A stretch of DNA of 64,000 nt from Pseudolysinimonas sp. Lineage in GTDB: Bacteria; Actinomycetota; Actinomycetes; Actinomycetales; Microbacteriaceae. The notes beneath the pieces were generated by a model. It was not told the origin of the DNA. It searched no databases and worked only from the letters and a program-made list of their open reading frames with translations. The DNA is taken from positions 821 through 64,820 of the forward strand of contig DASTNC010000071.1 of the NCBI GenBank assembly GCA_035721225.1, read 5' to 3'. A program made the translations under genes and the position numbers. Below are positions 31,979 to 49,974 of the stretch, piece by piece; positions within the stretch are counted from its first letter, which is position 1, and each line of letters starts with the position of its first letter.

Positions 31979-32845
31979 TCACAGCTCGGGACCTTGCGCT
32001 GCTGCGCCGAGTTTGCGAGACAGGTCTTCGGCGGCGGCCGCCACATAGCGCCCGAGATTGTCGAGGCGTTCGCCGATCCGGCCCTTGGGCGCGCTCACGT
32101 TGATCGCCGCCACGATCCTTCCGTTCAGATCCCGCACCGGCGCTGATGCGCCAACCACGCCCGACTCCAGCTCTTCGTCCAGGGTCGCATACCCCCGCGA
32201 ACGGATGCGCGCCAGCTCCTCCAGCAGGCTCTCGAAGTCGTTCACGATGGCCTTGTCCTCCGGGGGAACGGGCAACACCGAGAAGCCGGAGGCCGCCATC
32301 ACCGGATCGCTCGGGCCGACGATGGGCAGGTCGTGACCGTGCTCGTCGTACCAGCGCGCGAGAGAGATGCGGTCCCAGTCGCTGAGCAGCACGCGGCCTG
32401 ACGGCGTCCGCCAGGCCGCCGTCGTCACTCCCTCCCACCCGGTCGTGCGGAACTCGTGGGGGCTCAGCTCGCTCAGGATCGTCAGCACGTTCCCCCCCCG
32501 GAGCACGCACAGGTGCGTGGTCTCACGCGTCGAGAGGGCAACCTGTCGCAGGTGCGAGCGGGCCTGCGACGCCAGGCGGCTCTCGGACGTTCGGGCGGCA
32601 AGCGCATACAGGCGCGAGCCCAGGCGATACGTCAGTGTCGTCTCGTCCCGATCGAGCAAGCCGGCGTCGGCGAGGGTGGCCAACGATCGCGACACGACCG
32701 CCTTGTCCCGCCCGGTCAGTTGCGCCACCCGAACAACCCCGAGCCCTTGGTTCTGCGCGGCTTCCGGCCCGCCCAAGAGCTCGAGAATCTCGACATCCCT
32801 GGTCAGCCCCGACCTGTTGCGTCTGGGTTCGGTGTGCTCCGCCAC
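31979..32845 (-). CDS. IclR family transcriptional regulator
   Basis: HTH (VVRVAQLTGRDKAVVSRSL), RETTHL, IRSRGYA.LDEELESG, AAINVSAP. Confidence 0.92.
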   Translation of the reverse strand: MAEHTEPRRNRSGLTRDVEILELLGGPEAAQNQGLGVVRVAQLTGRDKAVVSRSLATLADAGLLDRDETTLTYRLGSRLYALAARTSESRLASQARSHLRQVALSTRETTHLCVLRGGNVLTILSELSPHEFRTTGWEGVTTAAWRTPSGRVLLSDWDRISLARWYDEHGHDLPIVGPSDPVMAASGFSVLPVPPEDKAIVNDFESLLEELARIRSRGYATLDEELESGVVGASAPVRDLNGRIVAAINVSAPKGRIGERLDNLGRYVAAAAEDLSRKLGAAAQGPEL

Positions 32846-32865
32846 GCCTTAAGCATAATAACGCT

Positions 32866-32882
32866 GTTGCCATATATACAAC
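32866..32882. promoter_or_regulatory. Probable IclR operator
   Basis: GTTG-ccatatata-CAAC in the AT-rich divergent spacer. Confidence 0.5.
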
Positions 32883-32958
32883 GAACCTTGTCAAAGTGTC
32901 ATCGCCCGGCCGTAGGGTGGTGCTACTGAGCCCACTCAAGGACGAGAAGGGATGGTTC

Positions 32959-33627
32959 ATGGACACCGGCTTCAACTTCGCCCAGCTCGCCCTGTTTCTG
33001 AGTGACCGGTGGGGCGAGATCATCAACCTCACGGTTCAGCACATCTCCGTTGTCGCGATCTCCTTGGTGATCGCGTTGGTCGTGGGGGTCGCGATCGGCG
33101 TCGCGGTGTGGAACAAGCCCATCTCGCGGGCCACCGCCCTTGCCGCCGCAGGAATCGCCATCACGATTCCGTCGCTGGCGCTGCTCGCGCTCCTCTCACC
33201 GCTTCTCGGTCTCGGCTGGGGGCCGACCATTGTCGCCCTCGTCTTCTACTCTCTGCTGCCGATCATCCGGAACACGGTCGTGGGACTGCGCGAAGTCCCC
33301 GCGGGGGTCCTCGAGTCGGCGCGGGGCATGGGCATGAGCCGCGCGAGGGTGATGCTGACGACGCAGCTGCCCATCGCCTGGCCGGTGATCCTCACCGGCG
33401 TGCGGGTTGCCGCGCAGCTCACCATCGGGATCGCGGCCATCGCCGCCTATGTGGCGGGTCCCGGGCTCGGGCAATACATCTTCACCGGGCTGTCGTCGAT
33501 CGGCTCGCGCAACGCCATCAACTACGCGTTGGTCGGAACGGTCCTGGTGATCGTTCTCGCCCTCCTCGTCGATGGCGCGTTCGTCTTCATCACCCGGTTC
33601 ACAACATCGAGGGGTCTTCGTGGCTGA
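32959..33627 (+). CDS. Osmoprotectant/betaine-type (OpuB/C-like) ABC permease
   Basis: TIPSLALLA, YSLLPIIRNT, ESARGMGM, GPGLG. Confidence 0.92.
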   Translation: MDTGFNFAQLALFLSDRWGEIINLTVQHISVVAISLVIALVVGVAIGVAVWNKPISRATALAAAGIAITIPSLALLALLSPLLGLGWGPTIVALVFYSLLPIIRNTVVGLREVPAGVLESARGMGMSRARVMLTTQLPIAWPVILTGVRVAAQLTIGIAAIAAYVAGPGLGQYIFTGLSSIGSRNAINYALVGTVLVIVLALLVDGAFVFITRFTTSRGLRG

Positions 33628-34645
33628 AATCACCAACACCGGCTTTCTGACTGCCATCTCGGAGCAGTCAGCCGGCGTGAGCATCGAGCTGGACAACGTC
33701 ACGAAGGTCTACCCGGGCCAATCGGCCCCGGCGGTCGAGAACTTCTCGATGAGCATCGAGCCGGGAGAGTTCGTCGTGTTCGTCGGGCCGAGCGGGTGCG
33801 GCAAGACGACGACCATGAAGATGATCAACCGCATCATCGAGCCGACCTCGGGAAGCATCCGGATCGACGGCAAGGACGTCCTGTCGCTTGACCCGAACGC
33901 GCTGCGCCGTCACATCGGATACGTCATCCAGCAGATCGGGCTGTTCCCCCACCGGACGATTGCCGAGAACATCGGCACCGTGCCGAGGATGCTGGGCTGG
34001 TCCAAGAGCAAGGTCGCTGAGCGCGTCGACGAGCTGCTGCGCACGGTGCAGCTCGACCCCGCGGACTTCGCCAAGCGGTACCCGAAGCAGCTGTCCGGGG
34101 GGCAGCAGCAGCGTGCGGGTGTCGCGCGTGCGCTTGCGGCCAACCCGCCGGTGATGCTGATGGACGAACCGTTCGGCGCCACCGACCCGATCACCCGGGA
34201 GAAGCTGCAGGCGGAGTTCCTGCGGCTGCAGGCCGAGCTGGGCAAGACCATCATCTTCGTCACCCACGACTTCGACGAGGCGATCCGCCTCGGCGACCGG
34301 ATCGCGGTGATGAGCGAGCGCAGCAAGATCGAGCAGTTCGACACTCCCGCGAACATCCTCGCCGCGCCGGCCAACGACTACGTGGCCTCGTTCATCGGAC
34401 AGGGCGCGGCGATCAAGCGGCTGACGCTGATCCCCGTGACCGCGGCGCGGCTCTTGCCGGTCGCCGAAGGCAGCCCCGGCATCCCCGCCGATGGCTCGCT
34501 GCGTGATGCGCTCGACCTCATCGTGCTCACCGGCAGCCGCGCGATCAACGTCGTCGACGCGGACGGGCGGCCGATGGGATCCCTCGACCACGCGACGATC
34601 TCGGCGGTGCTGGGCACTCCGTCGAAACGGGGAGGCAGGGGATGA
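33620..34645 (+). CDS. Betaine-type ABC transporter ATP-binding protein
   Basis: GPSGCGKT, GYVIQQIGLFPH, LSGGQQQR, LMDEPFGA; degenerate CBS tail. Confidence 0.93.
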   Translation: MAEITNTGFLTAISEQSAGVSIELDNVTKVYPGQSAPAVENFSMSIEPGEFVVFVGPSGCGKTTTMKMINRIIEPTSGSIRIDGKDVLSLDPNALRRHIGYVIQQIGLFPHRTIAENIGTVPRMLGWSKSKVAERVDELLRTVQLDPADFAKRYPKQLSGGQQQRAGVARALAANPPVMLMDEPFGATDPITREKLQAEFLRLQAELGKTIIFVTHDFDEAIRLGDRIAVMSERSKIEQFDTPANILAAPANDYVASFIGQGAAIKRLTLIPVTAARLLPVAEGSPGIPADGSLRDALDLIVLTGSRAINVVDADGRPMGSLDHATISAVLGTPSKRGGRG

Positions 34646-35430
34646 GCACCGCGACCGCCGATCCTGTCGACTGGAGCACCGGAGAGGTCACCCGGTTCCG
34701 CGACCGCAGCGCAATGGTCGCGCGGTGGGCGGCGGCGCCCGCGTTCGTCGCCGTCGCGCTGATCGCCACCTTCGCTTTCGTCTCCGCGCTGCAGCTCGAC
34801 TCGATCGAGCAGCGAACGCTCAACCCCGACTACATCACCGCGCGCATCCGTGAGCACATCGTCCTGACGATCGTGGCATCCGCACTGGTGGCGGTGCTGG
34901 CGATCCCCGCCGGGATCCTGGTGCACCGCGTCCAGTCGAGGATCTTCCGAGGCATCGTGCTGACCATCGGCAACATCGGGCAAGCCACCCCGGCCATCGG
35001 TGTCGTCATTCTGCTGGCGATCGTCTGGCAGACCGGATTCGCGACCGCGGTGGTCGCGCTCGTTGCCTATTCCTTCCTCCCCGTCTTGCGGAACACGATG
35101 ATCGGCCTCGAACAGGTGAGCCCCGAGGCCAAGGAGGCCGCCCGTGGAATGGGGATGACCCCCGGGCAGGTACTGCGGCACATCGAGCTCCCCCTCGCCA
35201 CGCCGACGATCCTCGCCGGGCTGCGCACCTCATTGGTGTTCGCCGTCGGGGTGGCAACGGTGGCGACCTTCATCAACGCCGGTGGTCTGGGCGACATGAT
35301 CGTGAACGGCCTGAAGCTGCAGCGGTTCCCTGTCCTGCTCGTCGGCGCCGTGCTGGTGGCGGCCATCGCCATCCTCATCGACTGGCTGGCCGGAATCGTC
35401 GAAGACCTCGTCCGCCCGAAGGGGCTCTAG
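34642..35430 (+). CDS. Betaine-type ABC permease
   Basis: LPVLRNT, EAARGMGM, IELPLA, AGGLG. Confidence 0.92.
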   Translation: MSTATADPVDWSTGEVTRFRDRSAMVARWAAAPAFVAVALIATFAFVSALQLDSIEQRTLNPDYITARIREHIVLTIVASALVAVLAIPAGILVHRVQSRIFRGIVLTIGNIGQATPAIGVVILLAIVWQTGFATAVVALVAYSFLPVLRNTMIGLEQVSPEAKEAARGMGMTPGQVLRHIELPLATPTILAGLRTSLVFAVGVATVATFINAGGLGDMIVNGLKLQRFPVLLVGAVLVAAIAILIDWLAGIVEDLVRPKGL

Positions 35431-35541
35431 GCGATCCGGCAGCACAGGCACCCGACTTCCTCTCCTCAATCACCCCCGCAACACCCCGTCTCGCGTCGGC
35501 GCCTTGACGTGCCCCGCGACCATCAAGAAAGAAGGAACACC

Positions 35542-36480
35542 ATGTTTACCAAGAGGCAGATTTCAGGAGTGGCGCTCGCCGCAGCGGCCGTCCTGCTCTT
35601 CACAGGATGCGCCAGCTCCAACGGTTCCACCGCGACCAGCAAGGGTGACGAGCTCAAGGGCCTGACGGGGCAGATCGGGTCCAAGGACTTCTCGGAGCAG
35701 TACATCCTGGCTTACCTGACCACCGACATCCTCAACGCTCACGGGGCGAAGCTGACCGCCAACACCAAGTTGGTCGGCTCGGCGAACGTGCGTCAGGCGC
35801 TGGTCAACAAGCAGTTCGTCGGCTACTGGGAGTACACCGGAACGGCCTGGATCACCTACCAGGGCAACACCAAGCCGATCACCGACCCGAAGGCCCAGTT
35901 CGACGCGGTGAAGAAGGCCGACGAGGCGAACGGCATCGCCTGGCTCGACCCGGCTCCGCTGAACAACACCTACGCCTTCGCGGTCCGCAGCGACGAGGCG
36001 AAGAAGCTGGGAGTGACGAGCCTGAGTGATGTGGCGAAGCTGCCGCAGAAGGATCAGACGTTCTGCATCGAGAGCGAGTTCTCTACGCGCGACGACGGAT
36101 GGCCGGGCCTCAAGAAGGCCTACGGGATCACCGTTCCCGACTCGAACGTGAAGCTGCTCGACACCGGCATCATCTACACGGCCACCCAGAAGGGGCAGGA
36201 CTGCAACTTCGGCGAGGTCTTCGCGACGGATGGCCGCATCAAGGCACTCGACCTGACCGTGATGAAGGACGACAAGAACTTCTTCCCGGTCTACCAGGGT
36301 GCGTTCTCGCTGCAGGCGCCGATCCTGAAGAAGTACCCCGCCATCGCCGACGTCATCGCCAAGCTGTCGCCGCTGCTCACCACCGAGCAGATGCAGAAGC
36401 TCAACGCCCAGGTCGATGTCGACGGCCGTGAGCCGGCGACGGTGGCCGAGGAGTTCCTGAAGGCCAACGGTCTCATCTGA
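35542..36480 (+). CDS. Betaine/choline-type (OpuAC/OsmF-like) substrate-binding lipoprotein
   Basis: Lipobox FTGC; GSKDFSEQ, YWEYTGT, NNTYA, EF..R.DG, FATDGRI, FFPVY. Confidence 0.92.
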   Translation: MFTKRQISGVALAAAAVLLFTGCASSNGSTATSKGDELKGLTGQIGSKDFSEQYILAYLTTDILNAHGAKLTANTKLVGSANVRQALVNKQFVGYWEYTGTAWITYQGNTKPITDPKAQFDAVKKADEANGIAWLDPAPLNNTYAFAVRSDEAKKLGVTSLSDVAKLPQKDQTFCIESEFSTRDDGWPGLKKAYGITVPDSNVKLLDTGIIYTATQKGQDCNFGEVFATDGRIKALDLTVMKDDKNFFPVYQGAFSLQAPILKKYPAIADVIAKLSPLLTTEQMQKLNAQVDVDGREPATVAEEFLKANGLI

Positions 36481-36995
36481 TGTCGGAGGTCATCGCACTG
36501 CAGATCGGCGAGAGCTTCGTGGGTGATGGGGTGAATGCTGCCCACATCAATACGGTGCTGGGCGACCGGAGCGGCCCTGCTGGAGTTGCCTGGGCGACCG
36601 CCCTTGCGTCTCCGAGTGCCGGCCACGTGCCCTTCGTCGCGATCCTGCAGCCGTCCCTGCCGGTCAAGCCCATCACCCTGTTCGTGACCAAGTCGGCGCC
36701 TGAGGGCGACGTGCACGGCAACATGATCTGGGGTCCGGCCCAGGCGGGAGTGGCGGCGGGGGTTGCAGATGCGGTGGCCGACGGGATCATCCCGGAGAGT
36801 GCCACCCAGACGGCCGCGCTCATCGCGGCCGTCTGGGTGAACCCGGGAGCGGACGACGCGGATGCCGTCTACGTCAACAATCGACGGGCGACCGCCACGG
36901 CGCTCAGGAACGGCGCGACCGGCGAGCCGGCACTCGAGCGCATCCTCGCAGCTCGCCACCACCCCAGCAACCCGTTCTACACCAGCCCGGATTAG
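36480..36995 (+). CDS. fae: Formaldehyde-activating enzyme (Fae) family protein
   Basis: IGESFVGDG...AHI..VLG, GH.PF, KP.TL.V.K, GPAQAGVA.GVADAV.DG.IP, NN..AT. Confidence 0.85.
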   Translation: MSEVIALQIGESFVGDGVNAAHINTVLGDRSGPAGVAWATALASPSAGHVPFVAILQPSLPVKPITLFVTKSAPEGDVHGNMIWGPAQAGVAAGVADAVADGIIPESATQTAALIAAVWVNPGADDADAVYVNNRRATATALRNGATGEPALERILAARHHPSNPFYTSPD

Positions 36996-37034
36996 CGTCA
37001 TCGCGACGACCAGGCACCTCGAGAAGGAACAGAA

Positions 37035-37979
37035 ATGACAACACAGGACATGCCGACGGTCGGCTTCATCGGTCTCGGGAGCATGGGTGCCGGCATGACC
37101 CGCAACCTGCAGAAAGCGGGCTACCCACTGGTCGTCAACGATCTCCGTCCCGAGTCTGCTGAGGATCTCGTGAAGGGGGGAGCGACCTGGGCGGCCACCG
37201 CTGCCGAGGTCGCTGCCGCGAGCGACCTGGTGATCACCATGCTGCCGACCCCTCGGCACGTTGCCGACGCGGTCTCGGGTCCGGGAGGCGTGCTCGAGGG
37301 CATCGCGGACGGGGGAACGTGGATCGACATGTCGACCTCGGTGCCCGAGGTGGCGAACGCTGTTCGCCTCGCGACCGAGTCACGTGGACTGCACATCCTC
37401 GACGCGCCGGTCAGCGGCATGTCGATCGGGGCGGCGAAGGGCATGCTGCAGATCTTCATCGGGGGCGACGCCGCCGACGTGGAGCGGCTCCGTCCCGTCT
37501 TCGAGGCGATGGGCGACCCCGAGCGCATCCTGCATGTCGGAGCGCACGGGGCTGGCTATGCCGTGAAGCTCATGATCAACCAGTTGTGGTTCTCGCACCT
37601 GGTTGCGACGGCCGAGGTGCTGGCGACCGGGGTGTCGGCGGGCGTCGACCTCCGGGTGCTGCGCGACGCGCTGGTCGCCAGCCCGGCGAACAGCAACTTC
37701 GTGGAGCACGACGTGCTGTCCATCCTCGAAGCCGGGGATTACGACGAAGGCTTCGCTCTCGCCCTGGCCTGCAAGGATCTGGGGCTCTCGATCGACCTCT
37801 CGCGTTCGGTCGGGGTGTCGGTGGAGCTGTCGGCGCTCGTCGAGCAGGTCTTCCGGCGGGCGCGCAACGCCTATGGCGATCGCGCGGGTGAGATGACGCC
37901 GTTCCGCCTGTACGAAGATCTGGTGGGGCGGCCGCTGCGTCTGGTCGCCGAGGAATCGGGCGAGGTGACGGCACGGTGA
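37035..37979 (+). CDS. NAD(P)-dependent beta-hydroxyacid dehydrogenase (3-hydroxyisobutyrate DH family)
   Basis: GFIGLGSMG, DMSTS, DAPVSG, catalytic Lys in AVKLMIN, KDL. Confidence 0.9.
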   Translation: MTTQDMPTVGFIGLGSMGAGMTRNLQKAGYPLVVNDLRPESAEDLVKGGATWAATAAEVAAASDLVITMLPTPRHVADAVSGPGGVLEGIADGGTWIDMSTSVPEVANAVRLATESRGLHILDAPVSGMSIGAAKGMLQIFIGGDAADVERLRPVFEAMGDPERILHVGAHGAGYAVKLMINQLWFSHLVATAEVLATGVSAGVDLRVLRDALVASPANSNFVEHDVLSILEAGDYDEGFALALACKDLGLSIDLSRSVGVSVELSALVEQVFRRARNAYGDRAGEMTPFRLYEDLVGRPLRLVAEESGEVTAR

Positions 37980-39481
37980 CCCCCGTGACCGTGACCGACG
38001 AGCAGCTGGTGCTGAGCCGGATTCGGACGGAGCTCTTCATCGACGGCGAGTGGCGCCCGGCATCCTCGGGCCGCACCTTCTCCGTCACCGATCCCTCGAC
38101 GGGTGGCACCCTGGCCGAGGTGGCCGACGCGACCCCCGAGGACGGCCAGGCCGCTCTCGACGCAGCGCATCGGGCCCAACGCGGCTGGGCCAAGACGGCG
38201 CCCCGCGCTCGCGCCGAGATCCTGCGCCGCGCCTTCGAGTCGGTGACCGCTCGGGCCGACGAGTTCGCCATGACCATGACGCTGGAGATGGGCAAGCCGC
38301 TGGCCGAGTCCCACGGCGAAGTCGCCTACGGAGCGGAGTTCCTGCGCTGGTTCTCGGAAGAAGCTCCGCGCATCTCCGGCCGCTACGCGACGGCTCCTGA
38401 CGGCGCCAATCGGCTTCTGGTGGTGAAGCGCCCGGTCGGGCCGTGCCTGTTCATCACGCCCTGGAACTTCCCGCTCGCGATGGCCACGCGCAAGATCGCG
38501 CCGGCGATCGCCGCCGGCTGCACCATGGTGCTGAAGCCCGCCGCCCTCACGCCTCTGACCGCGCTGCTGTTGACGCAGGTGTTCGAGGAAGCCGGGCTGC
38601 CCGCTGGCGTGCTCAATGTCATCCCGACCACCACCGCGGGGCAGGTCACCGGGCCTCTGATCACCGACTCCCGGCTGCGCAAACTGTCGTTCACCGGATC
38701 CACCGAGGTGGGGCGGCGTCTGATCGCCGATTCTGCCGAGCAGGTGCTGCGCGTCTCGATGGAGCTCGGCGGCAACGCGCCCTTCATCGTCTTCGAGGAT
38801 GCTGACATCCCCGCCGCCGTGGCCGGCGGCATTCTCGCCAAGATGCGCAACGGCGGGGAGGCGTGCGTCGCCGCCAACCGCTTCCTGGTTCACGAGTCGG
38901 TCGCCGAGGAGTTCACGGCGGCATTCGTGGAGCGAATGGCCGGCTTCACCGTCGCCCGCGGGACCGAACCCGGATCGACCGTCGGCCCGCTGGTCGACGA
39001 GCCGACGCGTGACAAGGTCGCCTCGCTGGTCGCGGGTGCGATCGAGGACGGCGCGCACCTGGCGCTGGGCGGGTCGGCCATCCCCGGCGCCGGATACTTC
39101 TACCAGCCGACCGTGTTGACGAACGTGCCCGCCGGGGCGCGCATCCTCGAGGAGGAGATCTTCGGCCCGGTCGCACCCATCACCACGTTCCGCACCGAGG
39201 CCGAGGCCATCGAGCTGGCGAACGCCACGCCGTTCGGGCTCGTCTGCTTCGCGTTCACCTCCGATCTGAACCGGGCGCTGCGACTCGCGGAGGAACTCGA
39301 CACCGGCATGCTGGGCATCAACGCCGGCGTCGTCTCCAATCCCGCGGCGCCGTTCGGGGGAGTCAAGCAGTCGGGCCTGGGCCGAGAGGGAGGCTTCGAG
39401 GGCATCGACGAATACCTGGAGACTCGCTACGTCGGCATTGCCGACCCCTTCGCACCAGCCCACGATTCCGAGGACCACTGA
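37976..39481 (+). CDS. gabD: Succinate-semialdehyde dehydrogenase-like aldehyde dehydrogenase
   Basis: ITPWNFP, SFTGSTEVG, MELGGNAP, KMRNGGEACVAANR, EEIFGP, APFGGVKQSG. Confidence 0.85.
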   Translation: MTPVTVTDEQLVLSRIRTELFIDGEWRPASSGRTFSVTDPSTGGTLAEVADATPEDGQAALDAAHRAQRGWAKTAPRARAEILRRAFESVTARADEFAMTMTLEMGKPLAESHGEVAYGAEFLRWFSEEAPRISGRYATAPDGANRLLVVKRPVGPCLFITPWNFPLAMATRKIAPAIAAGCTMVLKPAALTPLTALLLTQVFEEAGLPAGVLNVIPTTTAGQVTGPLITDSRLRKLSFTGSTEVGRRLIADSAEQVLRVSMELGGNAPFIVFEDADIPAAVAGGILAKMRNGGEACVAANRFLVHESVAEEFTAAFVERMAGFTVARGTEPGSTVGPLVDEPTRDKVASLVAGAIEDGAHLALGGSAIPGAGYFYQPTVLTNVPAGARILEEEIFGPVAPITTFRTEAEAIELANATPFGLVCFAFTSDLNRALRLAEELDTGMLGINAGVVSNPAAPFGGVKQSGLGREGGFEGIDEYLETRYVGIADPFAPAHDSEDH

Positions 39482-39483
39482 CG

Positions 39484-40260
39484 ATGGACATCACCGAGTT
39501 CACAACGGACTTCTTCTCGCTGACGGGTCGCCGCGCGATCGTCACGGGCGGCAACTCCGGACTGGGGCGGGCCTTCGTGGTCGCGCTCGCTGCCGCAGGG
39601 GCCGACGTCTTCGTCCCGAGCCTCGCTCCCGACGACGGCACGACGGCCCGACTGGTGGAGGAGCGCGGGGGGCGGTACGAGTTCCTCGAAGCCGACATCA
39701 CGCAGGCCGGCGTGCCGGCGCAGGTGGTGGCCGCGTGCGCAGAGCGCCTCGGCGGAGTCGACATCCTGGTCAACTCGGCCGGCATCTGCCTGCTCGACGA
39801 CGTGGTGGCCTTCGACCGGAGCAAGTGGGACCCGATGATCTCGGTCAACCTCACCGCGGCGTTCGACCTCGCCCACGAGGCCGGCAAGCTGATGATCGCG
39901 CAGCGCTCGGGCAAGATCATCAACATCGCCTCGCTGTTCTCGTTCCTGGGCGGGCGGATGTCGCCCGCGTACGCGGCGACGAAAGCCGGCATCGTCGGGT
40001 TCACCAAGGCGTATGCCGATGAACTGGGCGAGCACGGCATTCAGGTCAACGCCCTCGCGCCCGGGTATTTCGCGACCGCCATCACCGAGCAGACCAGGTC
40101 GGATGCGGACGCCAGCCGCCGCATCCTCGAACACATCCCCGCGAACCGGTGGGGAGATCCCGCCGATCTGATGGGCGCGGTGGTGTTCCTGTCCAGCCGA
40201 GCATCCGACTACGTCAACGGCCACACGCTCGTCGTCGACGGCGGCTACCTCGTGCGATGA
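39484..40260 (+). CDS. ygcW: SDR oxidoreductase, YgcW-like (KduD-related)
   Basis: DFFSL.G..AIVTGGNSGLG.AF, SLFSFLGG..SPAY.ATK, HIPANRWG, VVDGGYLVR match the recalled E. coli YgcW sequence. Confidence 0.8.
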   Translation: MDITEFTTDFFSLTGRRAIVTGGNSGLGRAFVVALAAAGADVFVPSLAPDDGTTARLVEERGGRYEFLEADITQAGVPAQVVAACAERLGGVDILVNSAGICLLDDVVAFDRSKWDPMISVNLTAAFDLAHEAGKLMIAQRSGKIINIASLFSFLGGRMSPAYAATKAGIVGFTKAYADELGEHGIQVNALAPGYFATAITEQTRSDADASRRILEHIPANRWGDPADLMGAVVFLSSRASDYVNGHTLVVDGGYLVR

Positions 40261-40318
40261 ACGCGTTCACGCCCCCCCGTCACGTCGCATCCATTCGTCC
40301 GCATCACCAGGAGCAGCC

Positions 40319-41782
40319 ATGACCTCATCCCGATCCCCTCTGAGCCGTGAGCAGATCGTGTCGGCCGTCGTCGACCTTCTCGGCGCCGACGACATCGATA
40401 CCGACGAGACCGCTCTGCGAGAGGCCAGCGTCGACCGGTTCAAGAAGTACACGGCGGCGAACGGCATCTTCGACGGACCCTTCCCCTCCGTGATCGCCTA
40501 CCCCCGGACGGCGCAGCAGGTGGCCGAGGTGCTGCGCTTCGCCAATGACAACCTGGTCGCCGTCGTTCCACGGACCGGGCGCACGGCCACCGAGGGCGGC
40601 CTCGAGACGGTCGTGGCCGACTCCATCGTGCTCGACGGTTCGCGGATGAACGCGATCCTGTCGATCGACCCTGTCGACATGATGGCCACCGTCCAGTGCG
40701 GCGTCCCGCTGCAGGTGCTCGAAGACGAACTGCGCGCCAGGGGGCTCACGACCGGGCATTCGCCGCAGTCCAAGCCGCTGGCGCAGTACGGAGGCCTCAC
40801 GGCAACCCGCTCGATCGGACAGTTCTCGACCCTGTACGGAGGCATCGAGGACATGGTGGTGGGCCTGGAGGCGGTGTTCCCCGATGGGTCGATCAGCCGC
40901 ATCAAGAATGTCCCCCGTCGTGCCGCAGGCCCCGACATCCGGCACATCGTGATCGGCAACGAGGGGGCGCTGTGCTTCATCACCGAGGTCACAGTCAAGG
41001 TCTTCACCTACCAGCCCCAGAACAACCGGTTCTTCGGCTTCTTGCTCGACGACTTCGGGCAGGGCGTCGATGCCCTGCGGGAGTTGATCACGTCGGGCTA
41101 CCGCCCGTCGATCTGCCGCCTGTACTCGCCGGAGGATGCGCGTCAGCACTTCTCGCACTTCGCGAAGGGCAAGAACGTGGTGGTGCTGATGGCGGAGGGC
41201 CCGGCGCCGATCGCCGACGCCACGGCCACGGCCATCGAAGGACTGTTCGCGCGCCGCCCGCATGAGCGCGTCGATTCGGCTCTCATCGAGGACTGGTTCG
41301 ACCACCTCAACTGGGACCAGCGCTCGATCGATGCCGAGAAGGCCACGATGATCGCCGACGCGCACCTCGGCTACACGACCGAAGTGTCGATCGACTGGTC
41401 CCGGGTCAACGATCTCTACGAAGCCGTGATGACGCGTGTGCGCGAGGAGTTCGCGCGCGCCGCAGATCTGACGATGCTCGGCGCCCATTCCTCGCACAGC
41501 TACCAGACCGGCACGAACCTCTACTTCGTGTACGACTACTCGATCAACTGCGAACCCCGCGACGAGATCACCGAATACCATGAGCCGATCAACGCCCTCA
41601 TCGTGGAGGAGGCGCTGCGGCTGGGAGGTTCGATGGTCCACCATCACGGCATCGGCAAGTACCGCACCCCGTGGACCGAGATCGAGCACGGAAGCGCGTA
41701 CGGCATCCTGCAGAAGTTGAAGAGCGCATTCGACCCCAACGGGGTCATGAACCCGGGAACGATCTTCCCGCTCAACCACTGA
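40319..41782 (+). CDS. ygcU: FAD-linked oxidoreductase, YgcU-like (VAO / alkyl-DHAP synthase-related)
   Basis: ATEGGLETVV, TTGHSPQSKPLAQ, TRSIGQFSTLYG, IKNVPRRAAGPDIRHI, HSSHSYQ.GTN, GGSMVHHHGIGK match the recalled E. coli YgcU sequence. Confidence 0.85.
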   Translation: MTSSRSPLSREQIVSAVVDLLGADDIDTDETALREASVDRFKKYTAANGIFDGPFPSVIAYPRTAQQVAEVLRFANDNLVAVVPRTGRTATEGGLETVVADSIVLDGSRMNAILSIDPVDMMATVQCGVPLQVLEDELRARGLTTGHSPQSKPLAQYGGLTATRSIGQFSTLYGGIEDMVVGLEAVFPDGSISRIKNVPRRAAGPDIRHIVIGNEGALCFITEVTVKVFTYQPQNNRFFGFLLDDFGQGVDALRELITSGYRPSICRLYSPEDARQHFSHFAKGKNVVVLMAEGPAPIADATATAIEGLFARRPHERVDSALIEDWFDHLNWDQRSIDAEKATMIADAHLGYTTEVSIDWSRVNDLYEAVMTRVREEFARAADLTMLGAHSSHSYQTGTNLYFVYDYSINCEPRDEITEYHEPINALIVEEALRLGGSMVHHHGIGKYRTPWTEIEHGSAYGILQKLKSAFDPNGVMNPGTIFPLNH

Positions 41783-41800
41783 CGGGGCGCGGCTGCTCGC

Positions 41801-43234
41801 GTGAAGTACATCGTCGCCATCGACAACGGGTCGCAGAGCACCAAGGTGTCGATCGTGGATGCGGAGGGCCGCATCCACGCACGCGCTCGAGTCGGCCTCG
41901 CGCCGTATGCGAGCCCGGAGGCGGGCCACGTCGTCCATCCGGACGACGACGTCTGGGATTCGATCGCGTCGGCCTGCCGCGCGGCCCTCTCCCGCTTCAC
42001 GGGCGACCCCTCGGAGATCGCCGCGGTCGGGCTCTGCACGATCCGCTTCTGCCGCGCGATCCTCGACCAGGACGGGCGGCTTGTCGAGCCGATGCTCAGC
42101 TGGATGGACGCGCGAGTGGGCCTGCCCTATGCGCGGACCACCGAGCGGGCTCGGTACGTCACCACGTCATCCGGCTACATCACCCACCGACTCACCGGCG
42201 CGTTCCGGGACACCGCGGCCAACTATCAGGGTGTCTGGCCGATCGACACGCGGACCTGGCGCTGGTCCGCGGACGCCGACGCGTTCGCCGCGACGGGGAT
42301 GCCCCGCGAGATGCTCTTCGATCTGGTGGACCCCGGCGACCAGCTGGGAACCGTGACCGAACGCGCGGCCCACGTCACCGGCCTCCCGGTCGGTGTCGCC
42401 GTGTACGCGACGGCGAACGACAAGGCCGTCGAGGCGCTCGGAGCAGGTCTTCGCTCCGAATCGGAGCTGCTGCTCTCGCTGGGGACCTACATCTCGTCGA
42501 TGACCATCGGCTCAGAGGTCCGCGATTCCGATGCCTACTGGGTGAACTTCGGCGCGCAGCCGGGTCGGTACCTCTATGAGAGTGACGGGATCCGCCGCGG
42601 GATGTGGACGGTCAGCTGGTTCCGTTCGCTGCTGGAGTCGGAGAACCCGGAGGCGGGTGACGGCGATGGAGACCGCCTGTACGAACTCGAAGGCCGGCTG
42701 AACATCGGTGCCGCCGAGGTGCCTCCCGGCAGCAACGGACTCATGACGGTGCTCGACTGGCTGGCGCCCGCCGACGCTCCGTATCGGCGCGGGGCGCTGC
42801 TCGGCTTCGACGGCAGCCACGGGCGGTTCCACATCCACCGCTCGATCCTGGAGGGCATCGCCTTCACCATGGCCGACCATGCGGCCGCGATGGCGTCTGC
42901 CCTCCACCGCGAGTTCGACACCGTGATCCTCTCGGGCGGGGGAGCACGCTCCGACCTCATGGCGGAGATCGTTGCGAACGTGTTCGGAGTTCGCGTGGTG
43001 CGCACCGAGACCGACGACGCTGCCGGGATGGGCGCCGCCATCTGCGCGGCTGTCGGCAGCGGGATGCACTCCTCGTGGGAGGATGCGTCGGCACGCATGG
43101 TGCGCCATGTCTCGTCGGTGCAGCCGACGGCCGAGACCTCCCGGGCCTACGAGAGCTACCACACGGTGCACACCGAACTGCGGGCGCGGACCTCAGAGCT
43201 CTTCCGCTGGGTCTCGTCGACCCTGGCGTCTTAG
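41801..43234 (+). CDS. ygcE: FGGY family kinase, YgcE-like
   Basis: ID.GSQSTKV, HPDDD.W, DK.VEALGAGL, SLGTYI, GIR.GMWTVSW, GLMTVLDWL. Confidence 0.82.
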   Translation: MKYIVAIDNGSQSTKVSIVDAEGRIHARARVGLAPYASPEAGHVVHPDDDVWDSIASACRAALSRFTGDPSEIAAVGLCTIRFCRAILDQDGRLVEPMLSWMDARVGLPYARTTERARYVTTSSGYITHRLTGAFRDTAANYQGVWPIDTRTWRWSADADAFAATGMPREMLFDLVDPGDQLGTVTERAAHVTGLPVGVAVYATANDKAVEALGAGLRSESELLLSLGTYISSMTIGSEVRDSDAYWVNFGAQPGRYLYESDGIRRGMWTVSWFRSLLESENPEAGDGDGDRLYELEGRLNIGAAEVPPGSNGLMTVLDWLAPADAPYRRGALLGFDGSHGRFHIHRSILEGIAFTMADHAAAMASALHREFDTVILSGGGARSDLMAEIVANVFGVRVVRTETDDAAGMGAAICAAVGSGMHSSWEDASARMVRHVSSVQPTAETSRAYESYHTVHTELRARTSELFRWVSSTLAS

Positions 43235-44608: not shown

Positions 44609-45988
44609 ATGTCACCACAGCAACACCGTCATCCTTCCCATCGTCTGACCCGGCTCCTCGCGGCTACCGCGGTCGCCGCGACCTTCGCGCTCGTGGCTAG
44701 CGGCTGCACGTCGAACGGCGCAGGCGCGATCGACAGCAAGTACGGATTCGCCGCCGCCAAGCAGGTTCCCGGCAGCAAGATCACGGTGCTCGTCGACACG
44801 ACCCGCCAGCCGCTCGCCCTCGCGTTCCAGAAGGAGCACCCTGAGGTGCCGATCGTCATCGACACCTACGATGGAAACCCGGGCGGCAGCGGAAGCCTCC
44901 AGGCCAAGATCGCGCTCGACGACCAGGCCGGCAGCGGATGGCCGGATGTGGTGTTCTCCAGCCAGACCAACGACACAGCGTGGGCCGGCAAGGAGACCAA
45001 CGGAGTGCAGCCCTACGCCGCCGCGCTCAACAAGGGCCTGCTCGACCAGTCGTTCCTCGATGGTTTCGCCAAGGGAGCGAACGACCCCATGACCGTCGAC
45101 GGGACCGTGTACGGTCTTCGCAACGACCTCGCCCCCACAGTGCTGTGGTACGACAAGTCGCTCTTCGACCAGTTCGGCTACCAGATTCCGACCACCTGGG
45201 AAGACTTCCAGGCGCTGAGCGACCAGCTCGCGAAAGACCACCCGGGTTACATCATGGGCTCCGTCGGTGGCGGGTTCATGGCGGTCGACGCCTACTACTG
45301 GGCAGCAGCTGCTCCGGTCTTCCAGGTGAAGGGCAACAAGTTTACCACCAACATGTCGGACCCCAACTCGGTGGCGATGACCAAGCTCATCGATCACATG
45401 CTGGCGAACGGCACACTGACGAACAAGAACGTCTTCGATCCCGCCTTCATCAAGAACTACAAGGGCAAGGTCTTGGCGATGCCCGGGCCGGCATGGTTCG
45501 CGGGCGTGATCTTCCAGAACCCCGACAGCCTCGGTTCCGCACCCGGCACCGTCGGCGCGGCCAACCCGCTGTTCTGGAAGGGCCAGAAGGAGGTCACCGG
45601 TGACGTCGGCGGTGGCGTCTGGTACGCGTCGAGCCACTCCACGAACCTCAAGGCAGTCGCCGAGGTGCTCAAGTACGTGACGAGCTCCGACCAGGCTGTG
45701 AAGCTTGCCTCCGGCCTGCCCGGATACAAGGCGGCGGCTGACGCCTGGCTCGACCAGCAATCCTCGGGCGGCTTCTTCGTCGGTGACTTCAAGGGAGCCA
45801 TGACCAAGGCGGCCGCAAGTGTGTGGACCGGGTTCGGCTTCGCAACCTTCAGCAGTGAAACCGCCTGGGACACGAAGGTCAACCCCGTCATCGAGAGCGG
45901 TGGCACGGTGGCCAGTGCGGTCCCGGCGTGGCAGCAGGAGTTGAAGAACGAAGCCGCGATTCACGGCTACACCGTGACCTCCAAATAA
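44609..45988 (+). CDS. Sugar ABC transporter substrate-binding lipoprotein
   Basis: ATG after AAAGGA; lipobox ASGC; WPDVVF, YGLRNDLAP.VLWY. Confidence 0.9.
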   Translation: MSPQQHRHPSHRLTRLLAATAVAATFALVASGCTSNGAGAIDSKYGFAAAKQVPGSKITVLVDTTRQPLALAFQKEHPEVPIVIDTYDGNPGGSGSLQAKIALDDQAGSGWPDVVFSSQTNDTAWAGKETNGVQPYAAALNKGLLDQSFLDGFAKGANDPMTVDGTVYGLRNDLAPTVLWYDKSLFDQFGYQIPTTWEDFQALSDQLAKDHPGYIMGSVGGGFMAVDAYYWAAAAPVFQVKGNKFTTNMSDPNSVAMTKLIDHMLANGTLTNKNVFDPAFIKNYKGKVLAMPGPAWFAGVIFQNPDSLGSAPGTVGAANPLFWKGQKEVTGDVGGGVWYASSHSTNLKAVAEVLKYVTSSDQAVKLASGLPGYKAAADAWLDQQSSGGFFVGDFKGAMTKAAASVWTGFGFATFSSETAWDTKVNPVIESGGTVASAVPAWQQELKNEAAIHGYTVTSK

Positions 45989-46014
45989 GGAGCATCACCA
46001 TTTCCACCGAAACC

Positions 46015-46929
46015 ATGCTGCCCCCCGTCGGCTCCCGCCGGCGGGGGGCAGCCCTCCGGCGTCGCAGTGACAGCGGCCAGCGCACGATGGGGTACGTCTT
46101 CGTCATCGGCTACGGCATCCTGCTTGCGGCGTTCGGGGTCTTCCCCACCGCGTATGCCTTCTATCTCTCCTTCACGAGGACGGGCGCCTTCGTCGGCGTC
46201 GACAATTTCAGCCGCGTCTTCCAGGACTACCGGTTCCTTCCCGCCGTCCAGGCGGTTGCGCTCTACCTGATCGTCATGGTGTTGACGCTGACGGTCCTGG
46301 TGGTGGTGATCGCATTGGTGGTGCATGCCATCAGGAAGCGCTGGCTGTCGACGACGCTGCGCTTCCTCTACTACCTCCCCGGCGCGCTCGCGGGGGTCGC
46401 CAGCGTCCTGCTCTGGTCGTTCATGCTCAACCCCGAGTTGAGCCCGATCAGCGGGATCTTCACCTCCCTCGGCTTCTCGACGGGCGTGTCGCTCGTCACC
46501 GGAGGCAACCTCCCGGTGATCTTCACGCTGATCACCTTCTGGACGGGAGCAGGGGGATGGATCGTCATCATGTACGGCGCGCTCAACAACATCAGCGACG
46601 ACATCATGGAGGCCGCCCGGATCGACGGAGCCAACGCCCTGCAGATGGCGGGCTACATCCAGATCCCGATGCTGCGCAAGTGGATCGCCTACATGGGCCT
46701 GCTGACGATCGCCGGCGGGACACAGCTCTTCGTCGAGCCCCAGCTTCTCGCCGGCGTCTCGCACGGTGCCATCCCGCCGCAGTACTCGCTTCTTCAGCTG
46801 GCCTATTCGTACGCCTTCCAACAGGCCGACTTCAGCGAATCCGCCGCACTGTCGCTGCTGCTCCTGCTCGTCACCGCGGGCTTCGCGGCCATCATCGTCT
46901 TCCGAGGGGGACTCTTTGACCGAGACTAG
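46015..46929 (+). CDS. Sugar ABC transporter permease (start may be ATT at 46000)
   Basis: EAARIDGA, QLFVEP, TM helices. Confidence 0.9.
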   Translation: MLPPVGSRRRGAALRRRSDSGQRTMGYVFVIGYGILLAAFGVFPTAYAFYLSFTRTGAFVGVDNFSRVFQDYRFLPAVQAVALYLIVMVLTLTVLVVVIALVVHAIRKRWLSTTLRFLYYLPGALAGVASVLLWSFMLNPELSPISGIFTSLGFSTGVSLVTGGNLPVIFTLITFWTGAGGWIVIMYGALNNISDDIMEAARIDGANALQMAGYIQIPMLRKWIAYMGLLTIAGGTQLFVEPQLLAGVSHGAIPPQYSLLQLAYSYAFQQADFSESAALSLLLLLVTAGFAAIIVFRGGLFDRD

Positions 46930-47824
46930 ATCGTCTGCCCCAACTCGGACGTCAGCCGACCCGGCCCGCTGGCTGGGCAAGGCACTCGCCGGCCTTCTTC
47001 TGGCCTTCTTCGTCGTCTTCTTCACGCTTCCGGTGATCTGGCTCGTGCTCGCACCCGCGAAGTCGGCACACCAGCTCTACTTCGACAACCCCCTGGGTAT
47101 CGGCAACGTGAACTCCCTGATCGACAACTGGAACCAGCTGCTCGGCTTCCAACAGGGGCAGTTCTTCGTCTGGATGGGCGACTCCGTCATGTATTCCGGG
47201 GCAGCGCTTGTGATCACCCTCTTCGTGACCATCCCCGCGGGATACGCACTCGCGACGTCGACCTTCCGCCTGCGTCGGCCGCTGCTCATCACGACGCTCA
47301 TCGTCATGCTGATTCCGGGTACCGCGCTGGTGCTGCCGACCTTCCTCGAGCTCAATGCCGCGAGGCTGATCGGGTCACCGCTCGCGGTGATCATGCCGTT
47401 CTCCTTCTTCCCGTTCGGGGTCTATCTCACCTACATCTACTTCTCCACCAACGTCTCGCGCGACCTGCTCGATGCGGCGCGCATCGACGGCGCGACCGAG
47501 TTGCGCGTCTTCGGGCGGATCGCATTGCCGCTGGCGACACCGGTCGTCGCACTGGTCGGCTTCTTCAGCGTGGTGGGCACCTGGAACAACTACTTCTTGC
47601 CGTTTCTGGTGCTTCCGTCCCGCATCACGACGGTGCAGGTCGGCCTATCGCAGATGATGTCGAACGTGCGGCAGCTCAGGCCGACATCGCTCGGATCCAT
47701 CGCGATCGACCTGCCGGTGATGAGTGACGCGATCCTGCTCTCTGTCGCACCGGTTCTGCTGATCTTCCTCTTCTCGCAGCGCTTTCTGATCACCGGGCTG
47801 ACCGCCGGCGGCAGCAAGGAGTGA
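46916..47824 (+). CDS. Sugar ABC transporter permease
   Basis: TTG start; DAARIDGA, WNNYFLP, SQRFL..GL. Confidence 0.9.
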   Translation: MTETRSSAPTRTSADPARWLGKALAGLLLAFFVVFFTLPVIWLVLAPAKSAHQLYFDNPLGIGNVNSLIDNWNQLLGFQQGQFFVWMGDSVMYSGAALVITLFVTIPAGYALATSTFRLRRPLLITTLIVMLIPGTALVLPTFLELNAARLIGSPLAVIMPFSFFPFGVYLTYIYFSTNVSRDLLDAARIDGATELRVFGRIALPLATPVVALVGFFSVVGTWNNYFLPFLVLPSRITTVQVGLSQMMSNVRQLRPTSLGSIAIDLPVMSDAILLSVAPVLLIFLFSQRFLITGLTAGGSKE

Positions 47825-47832
47825 GTCCCGAG

Positions 47833-47871
47833 CGGCCCCGTGACCGTGCACGGGCACGGTTCACGGGGCCG
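47833..47871. terminator. Hairpin between convergent genes
   Basis: CGGCCCCGTGACCGTGC...GCACGGTTCACGGGGCCG. Confidence 0.65.
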
Positions 47872-47903
47872 GCCGCGCTCGAGCGCTGAGCTGCGGAGTC
47901 AGG

Positions 47904-48677
47904 TCAGGGCAGGCGTGGCGCCGCGTATCCGCGTCGCCGTTCCCACGCATCGATGATGTGCGACCGCATGCGTGCTTCGGCATCGGCCGGGTGGCCGGCG
48001 GCGATCGCCTCCAGCACGCCCTGATGCTCACTGAGCGACAGCGCGAAGGCAGCCTCGGTGGCGTTCCCGGTGAAGCGCGCGCTCTCCCGCGCGCGGTCGA
48101 ACAGGATCTTGGTCATGCTCGCGGCCAGGAGGTTGCCCGACATGGTCATGACCAGGCCATGGAAATCGGCGTCGGCCTGCTGAAAGGCGTCCCTGTCGTG
48201 AAGGGACGTCCTCATCCTCTCCAAGGCCGTCGTCAGCTCAGCGAGCTGGGCATCGGTGCGCAGGGTCGCCGCTTGGGCGCTCATCGACCCCTCGAGCGCG
48301 GTGCGCACGACCGCGAGCTGGTCGAGGAAACCGAGTGAGTCGTCGTTGTCGGCCAACGCGGACAGGACGACCGGGTCGAGGATGTTCCAGCTCGTCGAGG
48401 GCTGCACGGTCGTCCCCCGCCCGTGCTCGACCCGGACGAGGCCCTTCTCTTCGATGCGCTTGACCGACTCGCGGATCACCGTTCGGCTGACTCCGAAGTG
48501 GGTGCAGAGGTCGCCCTCCGGCGGCAGGAACGAGCCGGCCGCGACTTCCCCCGTGACGATCGCGCTCACGAGGTCGCGAACGACGGCGACGCCCAGCCGC
48601 GCTGCGGGCGGCCGCGCATCGCCGGTCGCCAGGAAGGTCTGCGGGGATACCAGGGCGTCGGACTCTGCTCCGGTCAT
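47904..48677 (-). CDS. FadR/GntR family transcriptional regulator
   Basis: LPPEGDLCTHFGVSRTVIRE, GRGT, FCD domain (ADADFH, SGN, EH, MRSHI). Confidence 0.93.
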   Translation of the reverse strand: MTGAESDALVSPQTFLATGDARPPAARLGVAVVRDLVSAIVTGEVAAGSFLPPEGDLCTHFGVSRTVIRESVKRIEEKGLVRVEHGRGTTVQPSTSWNILDPVVLSALADNDDSLGFLDQLAVVRTALEGSMSAQAATLRTDAQLAELTTALERMRTSLHDRDAFQQADADFHGLVMTMSGNLLAASMTKILFDRARESARFTGNATEAAFALSLSEHQGVLEAIAAGHPADAEARMRSHIIDAWERRRGYAAPRLP

Positions 48678-48740
48678 ACCACCACCTTAACGTCCGACAT
48701 CACATGGCGCATCATGCGGGTGCGGCTCAGGCTCGAGCGC

Positions 48741-49877
48741 CTAGATGCTCAGCTTCAATCCGGCGCGGAGCGGTCTGGTGTGCGGCCCGTTCTCGACCGG
48801 GGAGGTCTCGCCCTGCGGCATCGCGACGAGCGCCGACTCATCGACGGAGATGCCGCTTCCCGGCTGGTTGCCCAGCACGATCCCGCCGTCGGTGATCTCC
48901 TGATCGATCGAGATGCCGAGCGGTGCCGCGAGGTCTTGCACCTCGGTGGAGAGGTGGTTGGGAATGGCGGCGGCGGCGTGCGCGACGGCGCGGCAGCTCG
49001 TGAGCCCGATCGGGCTGACGGGCAGGTTGCGCGCATGCGCCGCGGCCGCCACTCGAAGAAGGTGGGTGATGCCCCACATGCCGCCGACCTGCACGACATC
49101 CACGGAGCCCTGGTCGAACAGGGGAGCGAACTGCTCGAGGCCGGTCAGGTTCTCGCCGGTGGCGACCGCGGCATTGATGGACCGGCTGAGTGCGGCGTGC
49201 CCCGGGGCATCCCATCGCCGCAGCGGCTCTTCGATCCACGTCAGGTCGCGGGACTGCTCGATGCGACTGATGTAGCGAACGGCTTGCTTGAGGTTCCACG
49301 ACTCATTGGCATCGAGCATGAGAGCGGGGCGGGGGGCGTTTGCCTGAAGCTCCGACTCGAGGATCTCGAGTCGCGCCAGGTCGCGATCCACATCGAGGCC
49401 GCCCTTGAGCTTGCCGCTCGAGAATCCGCGCTCGGCCATCGTCCGGTAGAAGGCCGAGAGCTCGTCGTCGGTCAGTGCGATGTCGAGGCCGGAGGCATAT
49501 CCCGGCACGAAGCGGTCTCGAGCCCCGAGCAGGCGCCAGAGCGGCTCGCCGGCGAGCTTCGCCTTGATGTCCCAGAGAGCCATATCGATGACTCCGATCC
49601 CTCCGAAGACATCGCCGTTGTGCCCCGACTTGAAGACGCTCGACAGCATCCGGTCGTAGAGGGCGGTGACCGAGCGGGGATCCTCGCCCTCGATGGCGCG
49701 GAACAGATGATCGACGCCGAAATCGGAGCCGACACCCACCCCCGTGACGCCCTCGTCGGTGTCGATCATGACGATATCGACCTCCGTCAGCCCCGAGGCG
49801 ATGACGCCATTCGCATCTCCGATACGGCGCCGCCAATCGTGAACGGTGTGCAGACAGCGGTAGCCGGTGATCTTCAT
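48741..49877 (-). CDS. Enolase superfamily (MR/MLE-like) protein, probable sugar-acid dehydratase
   Basis: IDMALWDIKAK, KLK, metal ligands in DANE / WIEEP / TGEN. Confidence 0.88.
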   Translation of the reverse strand: MKITGYRCLHTVHDWRRRIGDANGVIASGLTEVDIVMIDTDEGVTGVGVGSDFGVDHLFRAIEGEDPRSVTALYDRMLSSVFKSGHNGDVFGGIGVIDMALWDIKAKLAGEPLWRLLGARDRFVPGYASGLDIALTDDELSAFYRTMAERGFSSGKLKGGLDVDRDLARLEILESELQANAPRPALMLDANESWNLKQAVRYISRIEQSRDLTWIEEPLRRWDAPGHAALSRSINAAVATGENLTGLEQFAPLFDQGSVDVVQVGGMWGITHLLRVAAAAHARNLPVSPIGLTSCRAVAHAAAAIPNHLSTEVQDLAAPLGISIDQEITDGGIVLGNQPGSGISVDESALVAMPQGETSPVENGPHTRPLRAGLKLSI

Positions 49878-49920
49878 GTCATCCTTGCCGGGGCGGGAGG
49901 CGCGGTCCGCGCAGACACAG

Positions 49921-49934: not shown

Positions 49935-49974
49935 CTCTTGTAATGCGACAGAAGTTTCTGGCATGCTCGGGCAG

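Follow-up and report, generated by a model that had tools for sequence, protein, structure and literature searches.

The Escherichia coli K-12 ygc cluster comprises ygcNOP, ygcQRS, ygcUW and yqcE-ygcE, all annotated as 'putative'. Orthologues of YgcW, YgcU and YgcE lie together in a 64,000-nucleotide stretch of Pseudolysinimonas sp. DNA (GenBank assembly GCA_035721225.1, contig DASTNC010000071.1, positions 821 to 64,820; hereafter the window), where they belong to a ten-gene operon that also encodes an Opu-type ATP-binding cassette (ABC) importer and what we call a betaine module, namely a homologue of the formaldehyde-activating enzyme Fae, a beta-hydroxyacid dehydrogenase (beta-HAD) and a GabD-like aldehyde dehydrogenase (ALDH). 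The E. coli cluster has major facilitator superfamily (MFS) carriers, GlpP and electron-transfer flavoprotein (ETF)/Fix genes and no Fae, HAD or GabD, whereas the window has the Opu system, an IclR-family regulator and the betaine module. GlpP, the YqcE and YgcS carriers and ETF/Fix genes are absent from the window cluster (ETF was checked in the cluster only, not genome-wide), and tblastn searches with glpP and YqcE-like queries gave no match in the host genome, which is 81% complete. Identity between E. coli YgcS and the MFS carrier that accompanies betaine-module loci is 35-39%.

Several enzymes of the operon, and of its variants in other genomes, have better described relatives. The best structural relative of YgcU is the alkyl-dihydroxyacetone phosphate (alkyl-DHAP) synthase AGPS (EC 2.5.1.26; 2UUU, 4BBY), with which it shares an aligned Arg, Tyr and HHH motif, although it is distant and has no acyltransferase partner. 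The DauA/DauB route for 3,6-anhydro-D-galactose, as set out in the accessible part of PMC5698469, proceeds by aldehyde oxidation and then enolase-family ether opening to a 2-keto acid, which resembles the route proposed for an enolase-containing variant of the operon; DauA/DauB act on a sugar, however, and the enolase of that variant is distant and has Arg for Lys166. Methylorubrum extorquens Fae (EC 4.2.1.147; 1Y5Y) has the fold, the hidden Markov model membership and the residues H22, K71 and Q88 of the window protein, which differs in that methanopterin markers were not found, in its subfamily-specific H49, W119, W38 and W84 and in being exchanged with a C-N-lyase type of protein. The lyase that replaces Fae elsewhere shares Ser318 and the carboxylate-binding residues of the aspartase AspB from Bacillus sp. 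YM55-1 (1J3U) and differs from it by replacement of T101, N142 and H188, aromatic loop residues and a link or fusion to a BCCT carrier.

The betaine lipid diacylglyceryl-trimethylhomoserine (DGTS) is widespread in algal membranes. From comparative sequence analysis we consider it probable that the operon imports glyceryl-O-trimethylhomoserine, the deacylated DGTS head group, and breaks it down to DHAP, fumarate and trimethylamine. The betaine would enter through the Opu ABC system and its glycerol part would be converted to an alkyl-DHAP by YgcE, which would phosphorylate, and YgcW, which would oxidise, in either order. YgcU would then run alkyl-DHAP-synthase chemistry in reverse, via a flavin adduct and with hydrolytic or oxidative turnover, to free trimethylhomoserine, whose C4 alcohol would be oxidised to the semialdehyde by beta-HAD. 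Finally, the Fae homologue would eliminate trimethylamine, from the semialdehyde or the acid, and GabD would oxidise the C4 aldehyde, these two steps, in either order, giving fumarate. A wider reading, toward which we lean rather more cautiously, is of a pathway by which bacteria would degrade both the DGTS head group and homoserine betaine, with two independent ether-cleaving chemistries (reverse alkyl-DHAP synthase and enolase-family elimination) and two independent trimethylamine lyases (a repurposed Fae and a remodelled aspartase). E. coli ygcEWU would then take the glycerol and leave the betaine to cross-feeders, and the pathway would be an unrecognised source of trimethylamine in bacteria of gut and sea.

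If true, this would supply the missing breakdown pathway for the DGTS head group, a job for the three unassigned E. coli genes ygcE, ygcW and ygcU and, for a large branch of Fae, a function that does not involve methanopterin. The accessible text of a 2023 review describes the enzymes that cleave the DGTS ether as not identified (PMC9892843), and that of a 2021 preprint describes the fate of trimethylhomoserine as unknown, with trimethylamine suspected to arise from it (10.1101/2021.03.10.434842); the operon and its module swaps supply named, purifiable enzymes for both gaps, and the substrate prediction is specific and cheaply testable. Homoserine betaine is a measured dissolved reef metabolite according to the portion of PMC13403184 that was available, and in that of PMC10132767 DGTS is treated only as a remodelling lipid. 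The open literature, with most subscription journals and supplements outside its coverage, yielded no account of the pathway or of YgcU function; the available part of PMC13012123 gives only a 1.69-fold induction by D-serine, deletion having no effect on its phenotype. The catabolic system appears undescribed.

Conservation of the operon and of the pairing of its halves

Neighbouring genes overlap at opuB1/opuA (8 nt), opuA/opuB2 (4 nt), SBP/fae (1 nt, TGATG) and HAD/gabD (4 nt), and the other junctions leave 111 nt (opuB2-SBP), 39 nt (fae-HAD), 2 nt (gabD-ygcW), 58 nt (ygcW-ygcU) and 18 nt (ygcU-ygcE). No intergenic terminator was found, since the two matches of the scan both lie within open reading frames (ORFs), against 4.3 expected from shuffles; a sigma-70 scan found no promoter. 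We take the ten tightly joined genes to be a real, conserved operon, and the coordinates, junctions and terminator scan bear out the preliminary description, which had noted ten co-directional genes with short or overlapping junctions, a divergent IclR gene and no obvious terminator.

That description had also treated the importer-fae-HAD-gabD half and the ygcWUE half as one system and had named in advance a gene-neighbourhood analysis of their co-occurrence as a check. The halves are indeed found together. Among 350 genomes of the host's family searched for Fae and YgcU, 36 gave Fae matches and 27 YgcU matches, and in 15 the two lie no more than 10 kb apart, a proximity that is not due to chance. 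Two further genomes have both; in one they belong to different clusters, each on its own contig, and in the other they are split over two short contigs; the YgcU match in G303 is a 34% paralogue and a weak Fae match in G074 (E 3.6e-4) did not reproduce. Close Fae relatives are, by name, from Microbacteriaceae.

A wider view comes from the best 80 of 580 confirmed YgcU loci in GTDB, whose carriers include Microbacteriaceae, Lentzea, Umezawaea, Terrabacter, Nocardioides and Streptomyces, among others. YgcW recurs beside YgcU in 78 of these 80 loci and YgcE in 77; Fae together with an alcohol dehydrogenase (ADH) is present in 44, with GabD as well in 41 and with the Opu importer too in 39, and 28 have exactly the gene order of the window, the sequence ending early upstream in 14 of the 80. 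A glpP gene, as in E. coli, occurs in 22, only one of which has Fae. Because the genomes are kin these counts describe the association and do not test it.

Might the locus nevertheless be two unrelated neighbours, one made up of an importer for osmolytes and betaine enzymes and the other a pathway for polyols? Each half does occur alone, and on a Streptomyces clavuligerus plasmid the two are 294 kb apart. In the window, however, the gabD stop at 39481 is followed by the ygcW start codon at 39484, the gap from gabD or HAD into ygcW is at most 30 nt in 34 of 39 loci (40 were measured and L112, at -71, was dropped; in L104 gabD and ygcW are separate genes 18 nt apart), the genes remain together through rearrangements and other phyla have the same pairing of halves, built anew with parts that are not homologous. 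We regard two independent units as extremely improbable.

The glycerol module and its enolase-type replacement

YgcW scores below the KduD cut-offs (TIGR01832, 271.7 vs 338.85 bits; NF005390, 314.2 vs 369 bits). YgcU has the FAD_binding_4 and FAD-oxidase_C domains and its best PDB matches are the AGPS structures 2uuu and 4bby, with E about 1e-48; R267, Y402 and H441-443, invariant in 7/7, align with AGPS R419, Y578 and H615-617, and we assume that the functional roles of the AGPS residues carry over, the Arg being phosphate-binding. No ether-lipid synthesis context (acyltransferase, fatty-alcohol supply) appears among the recurring neighbours in the 80 loci. The kinase and the short-chain dehydrogenase/reductase (SDR) would make the natural type of substrate for YgcU, a 1-O-substituted DHAP, and since YgcU sits with both of these and with an importer it likely runs as a cleavage of soluble ethers. 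From a compound X-O-glycerol the three enzymes would give X-OH and DHAP.

A different set of genes takes this place in most of the 19 family genomes with a Fae match and no YgcU. In 17 of them the IclR, Opu, Fae and beta-HAD front is shared, GabD was observed too at all but one locus, and an enolase-superfamily protein (MR subgroup), a second ALDH and an Fe-ADH stand in place of YgcW, YgcU and YgcE (type B); of the other two, one contains no more than Zn-ADH, Fae, IclR, GabD and an MFS carrier and one match is spurious. The best PDB matches of the enolase are 5OLC (E 1e-33) and 4GGB. According to the accessible part of PMC5698469, 5OLC is DauB, which converts 3,6-anhydro-galactonate to a 2-keto-3-deoxy acid and in doing so opens an ether. 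Metal ligands are kept in 41-42 of 43 sequences, as is the His292/Asp265 pair, and Arg occupies the position of the Lys general base in 42 of the 43, which would fit elimination better than racemisation; with that Lys lost, we disfavour a racemase role. ADH, ALDH and eliminase would together yield X-OH and pyruvate from X-O-glycerol, and because both modules would give X-OH and a three-carbon product, a single substrate class, a glyceryl ether, explains the two of them.

The betaine module and the nature of X

The binding protein belongs to PF04069 and its residues Y98, Y144, Y212, F227, K48, T101 and R183 are kept in 69/69 sequences, that of the window included. From ProX and OpuBC structures we take the four aromatic residues to be a cage and K48, T101 and R183 to be carboxylate contacts, the pattern of an OpuAC-type importer of quaternary ammonium compounds. 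Transporters alongside relatives of the module are of the Opu or BCCT betaine types, carriers that recur in three phyla, and the Opu ABC system likely imports a betaine-type onium substrate.

The nearest structures to beta-HAD include 3-hydroxyisobutyrate and 2-hydroxymethylglutarate dehydrogenases. Its slot is taken by a Zn-ADH in Mycetocola and Acidimicrobiia and by an aldo-keto reductase (AKR) in Burkholderia and Caballeronia, where the order is fae, AKR, succinate semialdehyde dehydrogenase (SSADH), MFS; such replacement indicates that the slot oxidises an alcohol. GabD scores 534.7 bits with TIGR01780, its best family, whose cut-off of 646.35 it does not reach. The module swaps lend independent comparative support to the roles that the preliminary description had suggested for kinase, SDR, YgcU, beta-HAD and GabD.

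The Fae homologue scores 144.9 bits with TIGR03126, over the cut-off, and matches PF08714, and its AlphaFold model (pLDDT 74.7) has the Fae fold with a TM score of 0.79. F13, W38, H49, F52, H79, W84, W119 and F166 are near-invariant, in at least 97% of 120 sequences; a search at E<=1e-20 returned 3028 proteins, canonical Fae included. Family membership, the fold and the retained H22, K71 and Q88 speak for the preliminary proposal that Fae handles C1 or methylamine products, here read as formaldehyde or C1 units that N-demethylation would release and that folate or mycothiol might carry, as does a 2-oxoglutarate (2OG) oxygenase partner in some genomes. The cluster, however, holds no formaldehyde source (demethylase or amine oxidase), the methanopterin markers Mch and MptG were found in 0/5 genomes (four at least 99% complete, controls positive), GmaS gave nothing above its cut-off in the same five, and Fae is never met together with an aspartase-like lyase that has the same partners. 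A C1 role therefore seems to us very improbable. Fae is exchanged for the C-N-lyase type of protein in three partner contexts, an interchange that makes elimination of trimethylamine its likeliest role, and the protein is here likely a trimethylamine-eliminating enzyme and no handler of formaldehyde. A divergent Fae subgroup, 33-35% identical to the protein of the window and often flanked by two ADHs and an enolase, occupies the same slot at L102:12964-13491, L144:12866-13396 and L276-L281.

In Vibrio pelagius and Priestia megaterium an aspartase-family lyase and an ALDH lie beside ygcWUE, with no Fae; the Vibrio locus additionally has an AKR and a BCCT carrier. In the 120 best homologues of the lyase (AspB numbering) the catalytic S318 and the carboxylate-binding T187, K324, N326 and S140 are retained in all 120, whereas H188 is Cys in 120, N142 is Ser, Ala or Thr in 118 and T101 is Ile or Val in 118, and the loop gains aromatic residues in all 120 (I320 to Phe, M321 to Phe or Tyr). 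In aspartase His188 and Asn142 contact the amine, according to the accessible part of PMC11744663. The amino pocket thus reads as rebuilt with both C4-dicarboxylate sites kept, a change as would be expected for a bulky, cationic leaving group that needs no proton, and we infer that the lyase would convert N,N,N-trimethylaspartate to fumarate and trimethylamine.

Metagenome loci of this lyase, found with a pattern that included its SSFF loop (78 of 79 scored; several near-duplicates), have as partners an ALDH in 45 cases, an ADH or AKR in 39, BCCT in 12, Opu in 8, enolase with Fe-ADH in 12, ygcWUE in 4 and Fae in 0. Conversely, 119 YgcU/Fae loci gave two lyase-family matches and the host genome has two aspartase/fumarase-family genes, all four with canonical SS-loop and Asn motifs. 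All four combinations of glycerol module and betaine module occur. The ALDHs that partner the lyase form one clade among 15 sampled in the tree, and a fumarase or malic enzyme lies within the lyase cluster at two loci. One lyase homologue is fused to BCCT (L188:9998-12556, Peribacillus sp. R9-11 plasmid, annotated as an 852-aa ORF and possibly a frameshift artefact).

X must, on this sequence evidence, carry a betaine-type onium, an alcohol masked as a glyceryl ether and a skeleton that oxidises to a C4 dicarboxylate from which the onium is eliminated, and N,N,N-trimethylhomoserine has all three. The latter also occurs free, as an osmolyte of Trichodesmium according to the available part of 10.1101/2021.03.10.434842, which would explain clusters that have the betaine module and no glycerol module; clusters of the E. 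coli type would take only the glycerol. The preliminary description had guessed glyceryl-trimethylhomoserine, and the guess gains from the alternative ether-eliminating module, BCCT in other phyla and the remodelled aspartase, the substrate itself being one that we still infer. Carnitine and dihydroxypropanesulfonate were considered as substrates and rejected: there are no CoA-dependent steps, and betaine transporters and an aspartase-type lyase do not fit.

The same architecture could serve another onium glyceryl ether, since transporter, ether modules and altered amino pocket require only a bulky onium carboxylate. Candidates would be the head group of the related lipid DGTA (hydroxymethyl-trimethyl-beta-alanine), whose alcohol the 3-hydroxyisobutyrate and 2-hydroxymethylglutarate dehydrogenase relatives of beta-HAD bring to mind, a homoserine ether with only part of the methyl groups or a sulfonium analogue from which dimethyl sulfide would be lost. 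The lyase, however, keeps both C4-dicarboxylate sites and the Fae-linked ALDHs are of the SSADH type, which points to an unbranched chain of four carbons; the product from DGTA would be a branched malonate, and no natural sulfonium analogue is known to us. We consider this alternative unlikely.

Several points weigh against the assignment to glyceryl-trimethylhomoserine. The evidence for a C4 unit and trimethylamine comes from the lyase of other phyla and not from the window, and the cluster has no conserved lipase that would remove the acyl chains. The SSFF loop served as the search pattern for the metagenome lyase loci (not for the 120 proteins), a second aspartase paralogue also has H188C while keeping N142 and a normal loop, and the ALDH tree gives no clean roles, the GabD type also accompanying enolase in lyase loci. 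The enolase remains beside ygcWUE at five loci in four distinct genomes (L065, L288, L110 and L072/L152, the last two of the same content), and no type-B Fe-ADH orthologue was found in the genomes of L065, L072, L110 and L152, so that the role of the enolase may not be ether cleavage alone. In a sample of 400 genomes of the phylum there were 11 Fae and 2 YgcU matches, never co-located, and the full operon form is accordingly patchy. Finally, ETF genes adjoin YgcU in E. coli, Ilyobacter and Enterococcus, a linkage in anaerobes that hints at a net redox turnover.

This last observation, by suggesting that YgcU may be an oxidoreductase, also favours a glycerol conjugate that is not a betaine from a lipid, either one linked through N or S or a metabolite still to be named, from which lyase or Fae would remove another substituted amine, as do the E. 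coli-type loci with MFS carriers, GlpP and no betaine module. Against such a conjugate stand the recurrent Opu and BCCT carriers and the presence of the lyase module in three GlpP-type ygcWUE loci (L210, L253, L264), and an N-linked aspartate would need no ADH and ALDH; we think it quite unlikely. In Enterococcus gilvus YgcU is linked to an osmoprotectant ABC system.

Among further features of the lyase loci, a second aspartase-like gene (H188 replaced by Cys, normal loop, Asn142 where read) follows the module in ten (L213, L217, L223, L224, L227, L242, L244, L246, L247, L259). Lyase, Zn-ADH and BCCT occur together in L223, L224 and L242, candidate anaerobic sources of trimethylamine by gene content; L223 is labelled human-gut metagenome and also has a malic enzyme and an aldehyde:ferredoxin oxidoreductase replacing the NAD-dependent ALDH. 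One 2OG-oxygenase family neighbours the lyase in 16 of the 78 loci and Fae in 2, making it a third shared partner. It is HalD-like, the single protein that was translated having an HFD motif (L226:8379-9326, L221:9142-9978, L274:8781-9557, L275:8671-9501), and could provide a third, oxidative ether opening leading straight to the semialdehyde.

Regulator, gene layout and surroundings

Of 74 IclR homologues, 57 have an exact GTTG-N9-CAAC palindrome upstream, where 0.011 would be expected in 240 bp, and in the window it lies just downstream of a CATAAT hexamer (32854-32859), noted by eye, that resembles a -10 element. Operator and binding-protein residues are common to the YgcWUE and enolase forms of the operon, so that both forms probably share their inducer and their cargo. 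A tighter operator consensus has a single exact match in the host genome, the site of the operon itself, and no wider regulon was found there. A scan of five relatives with the strict pattern recovered the expected site of G027 and a single other one, distant from the operon, at C1:409426-409442 of G007, a type-B genome. The IclR transcript is possibly leaderless, a TATGCT hexamer (by eye) preceding the GTG by 6 nt on the minus strand (window 32846-32865). The features of the locus are collected in Table 1.

Table 1. Features of the operon (ten plus-strand genes, 32959-43234) and of its divergent regulator, in window coordinates
Feature	Assignment	Position	Strand	Evidence
opuB1	Opu/ProW-type ABC permease 1	32959..33627	+	
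opuA	ProV-like ABC ATPase	33620..34645	+	TIGR01186 319.7 bits vs cut-off 326.6
opuB2	Opu/ProW-type ABC permease 2	34642..35430	+	
SBP	OpuAC-family binding lipoprotein	35542..36480	+	PF04069; PDB relatives OpuBC, EgtU, ProX
fae	Fae homologue; likely trimethylamine-eliminating lyase	36480..36995	+	TIGR03126, PF08714, fold
beta-HAD	likely oxidises freed 4-OH	37035..37979	+	family match
gabD	GabD/SSADH-like ALDH	37976..39481	+	best family TIGR01780, under its cut-off
ygcW	YgcW orthologue, KduD-like SDR; likely oxidises glycerol C2	39484..40260	+	63% identity to E. coli K-12 YgcW
ygcU	YgcU orthologue, alkyl-DHAP-synthase-like flavoprotein; likely ether-cleaving step	40319..41782	+	59% identity to E. 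coli K-12 YgcU
ygcE	YgcE orthologue, FGGY kinase	41801..43234	+	43% identity to E. coli K-12 YgcE; Pfam FGGY_N/C
iclR	IclR-family regulator; likely repressor	31979..32845	-	Pfam HTH_IclR + IclR_C; retained beside both operon types
operator	palindromic predicted operator GTTG-N9-CAAC	32866..32882		predicted IclR site

Downstream of the operon lies the end, at 43276, of a convergent cystathionine-gamma-synthase-like gene. The surroundings (212-29378 and 44693-55535) form a carbohydrate-catabolism island around the operon, with two sulfatases, GH1, two GH2, two GH5, an alpha-L-rhamnosidase and a GDSL hydrolase (8612-9520), together with three sugar ABC systems and regulators of the ROK, LacI and GntR families.

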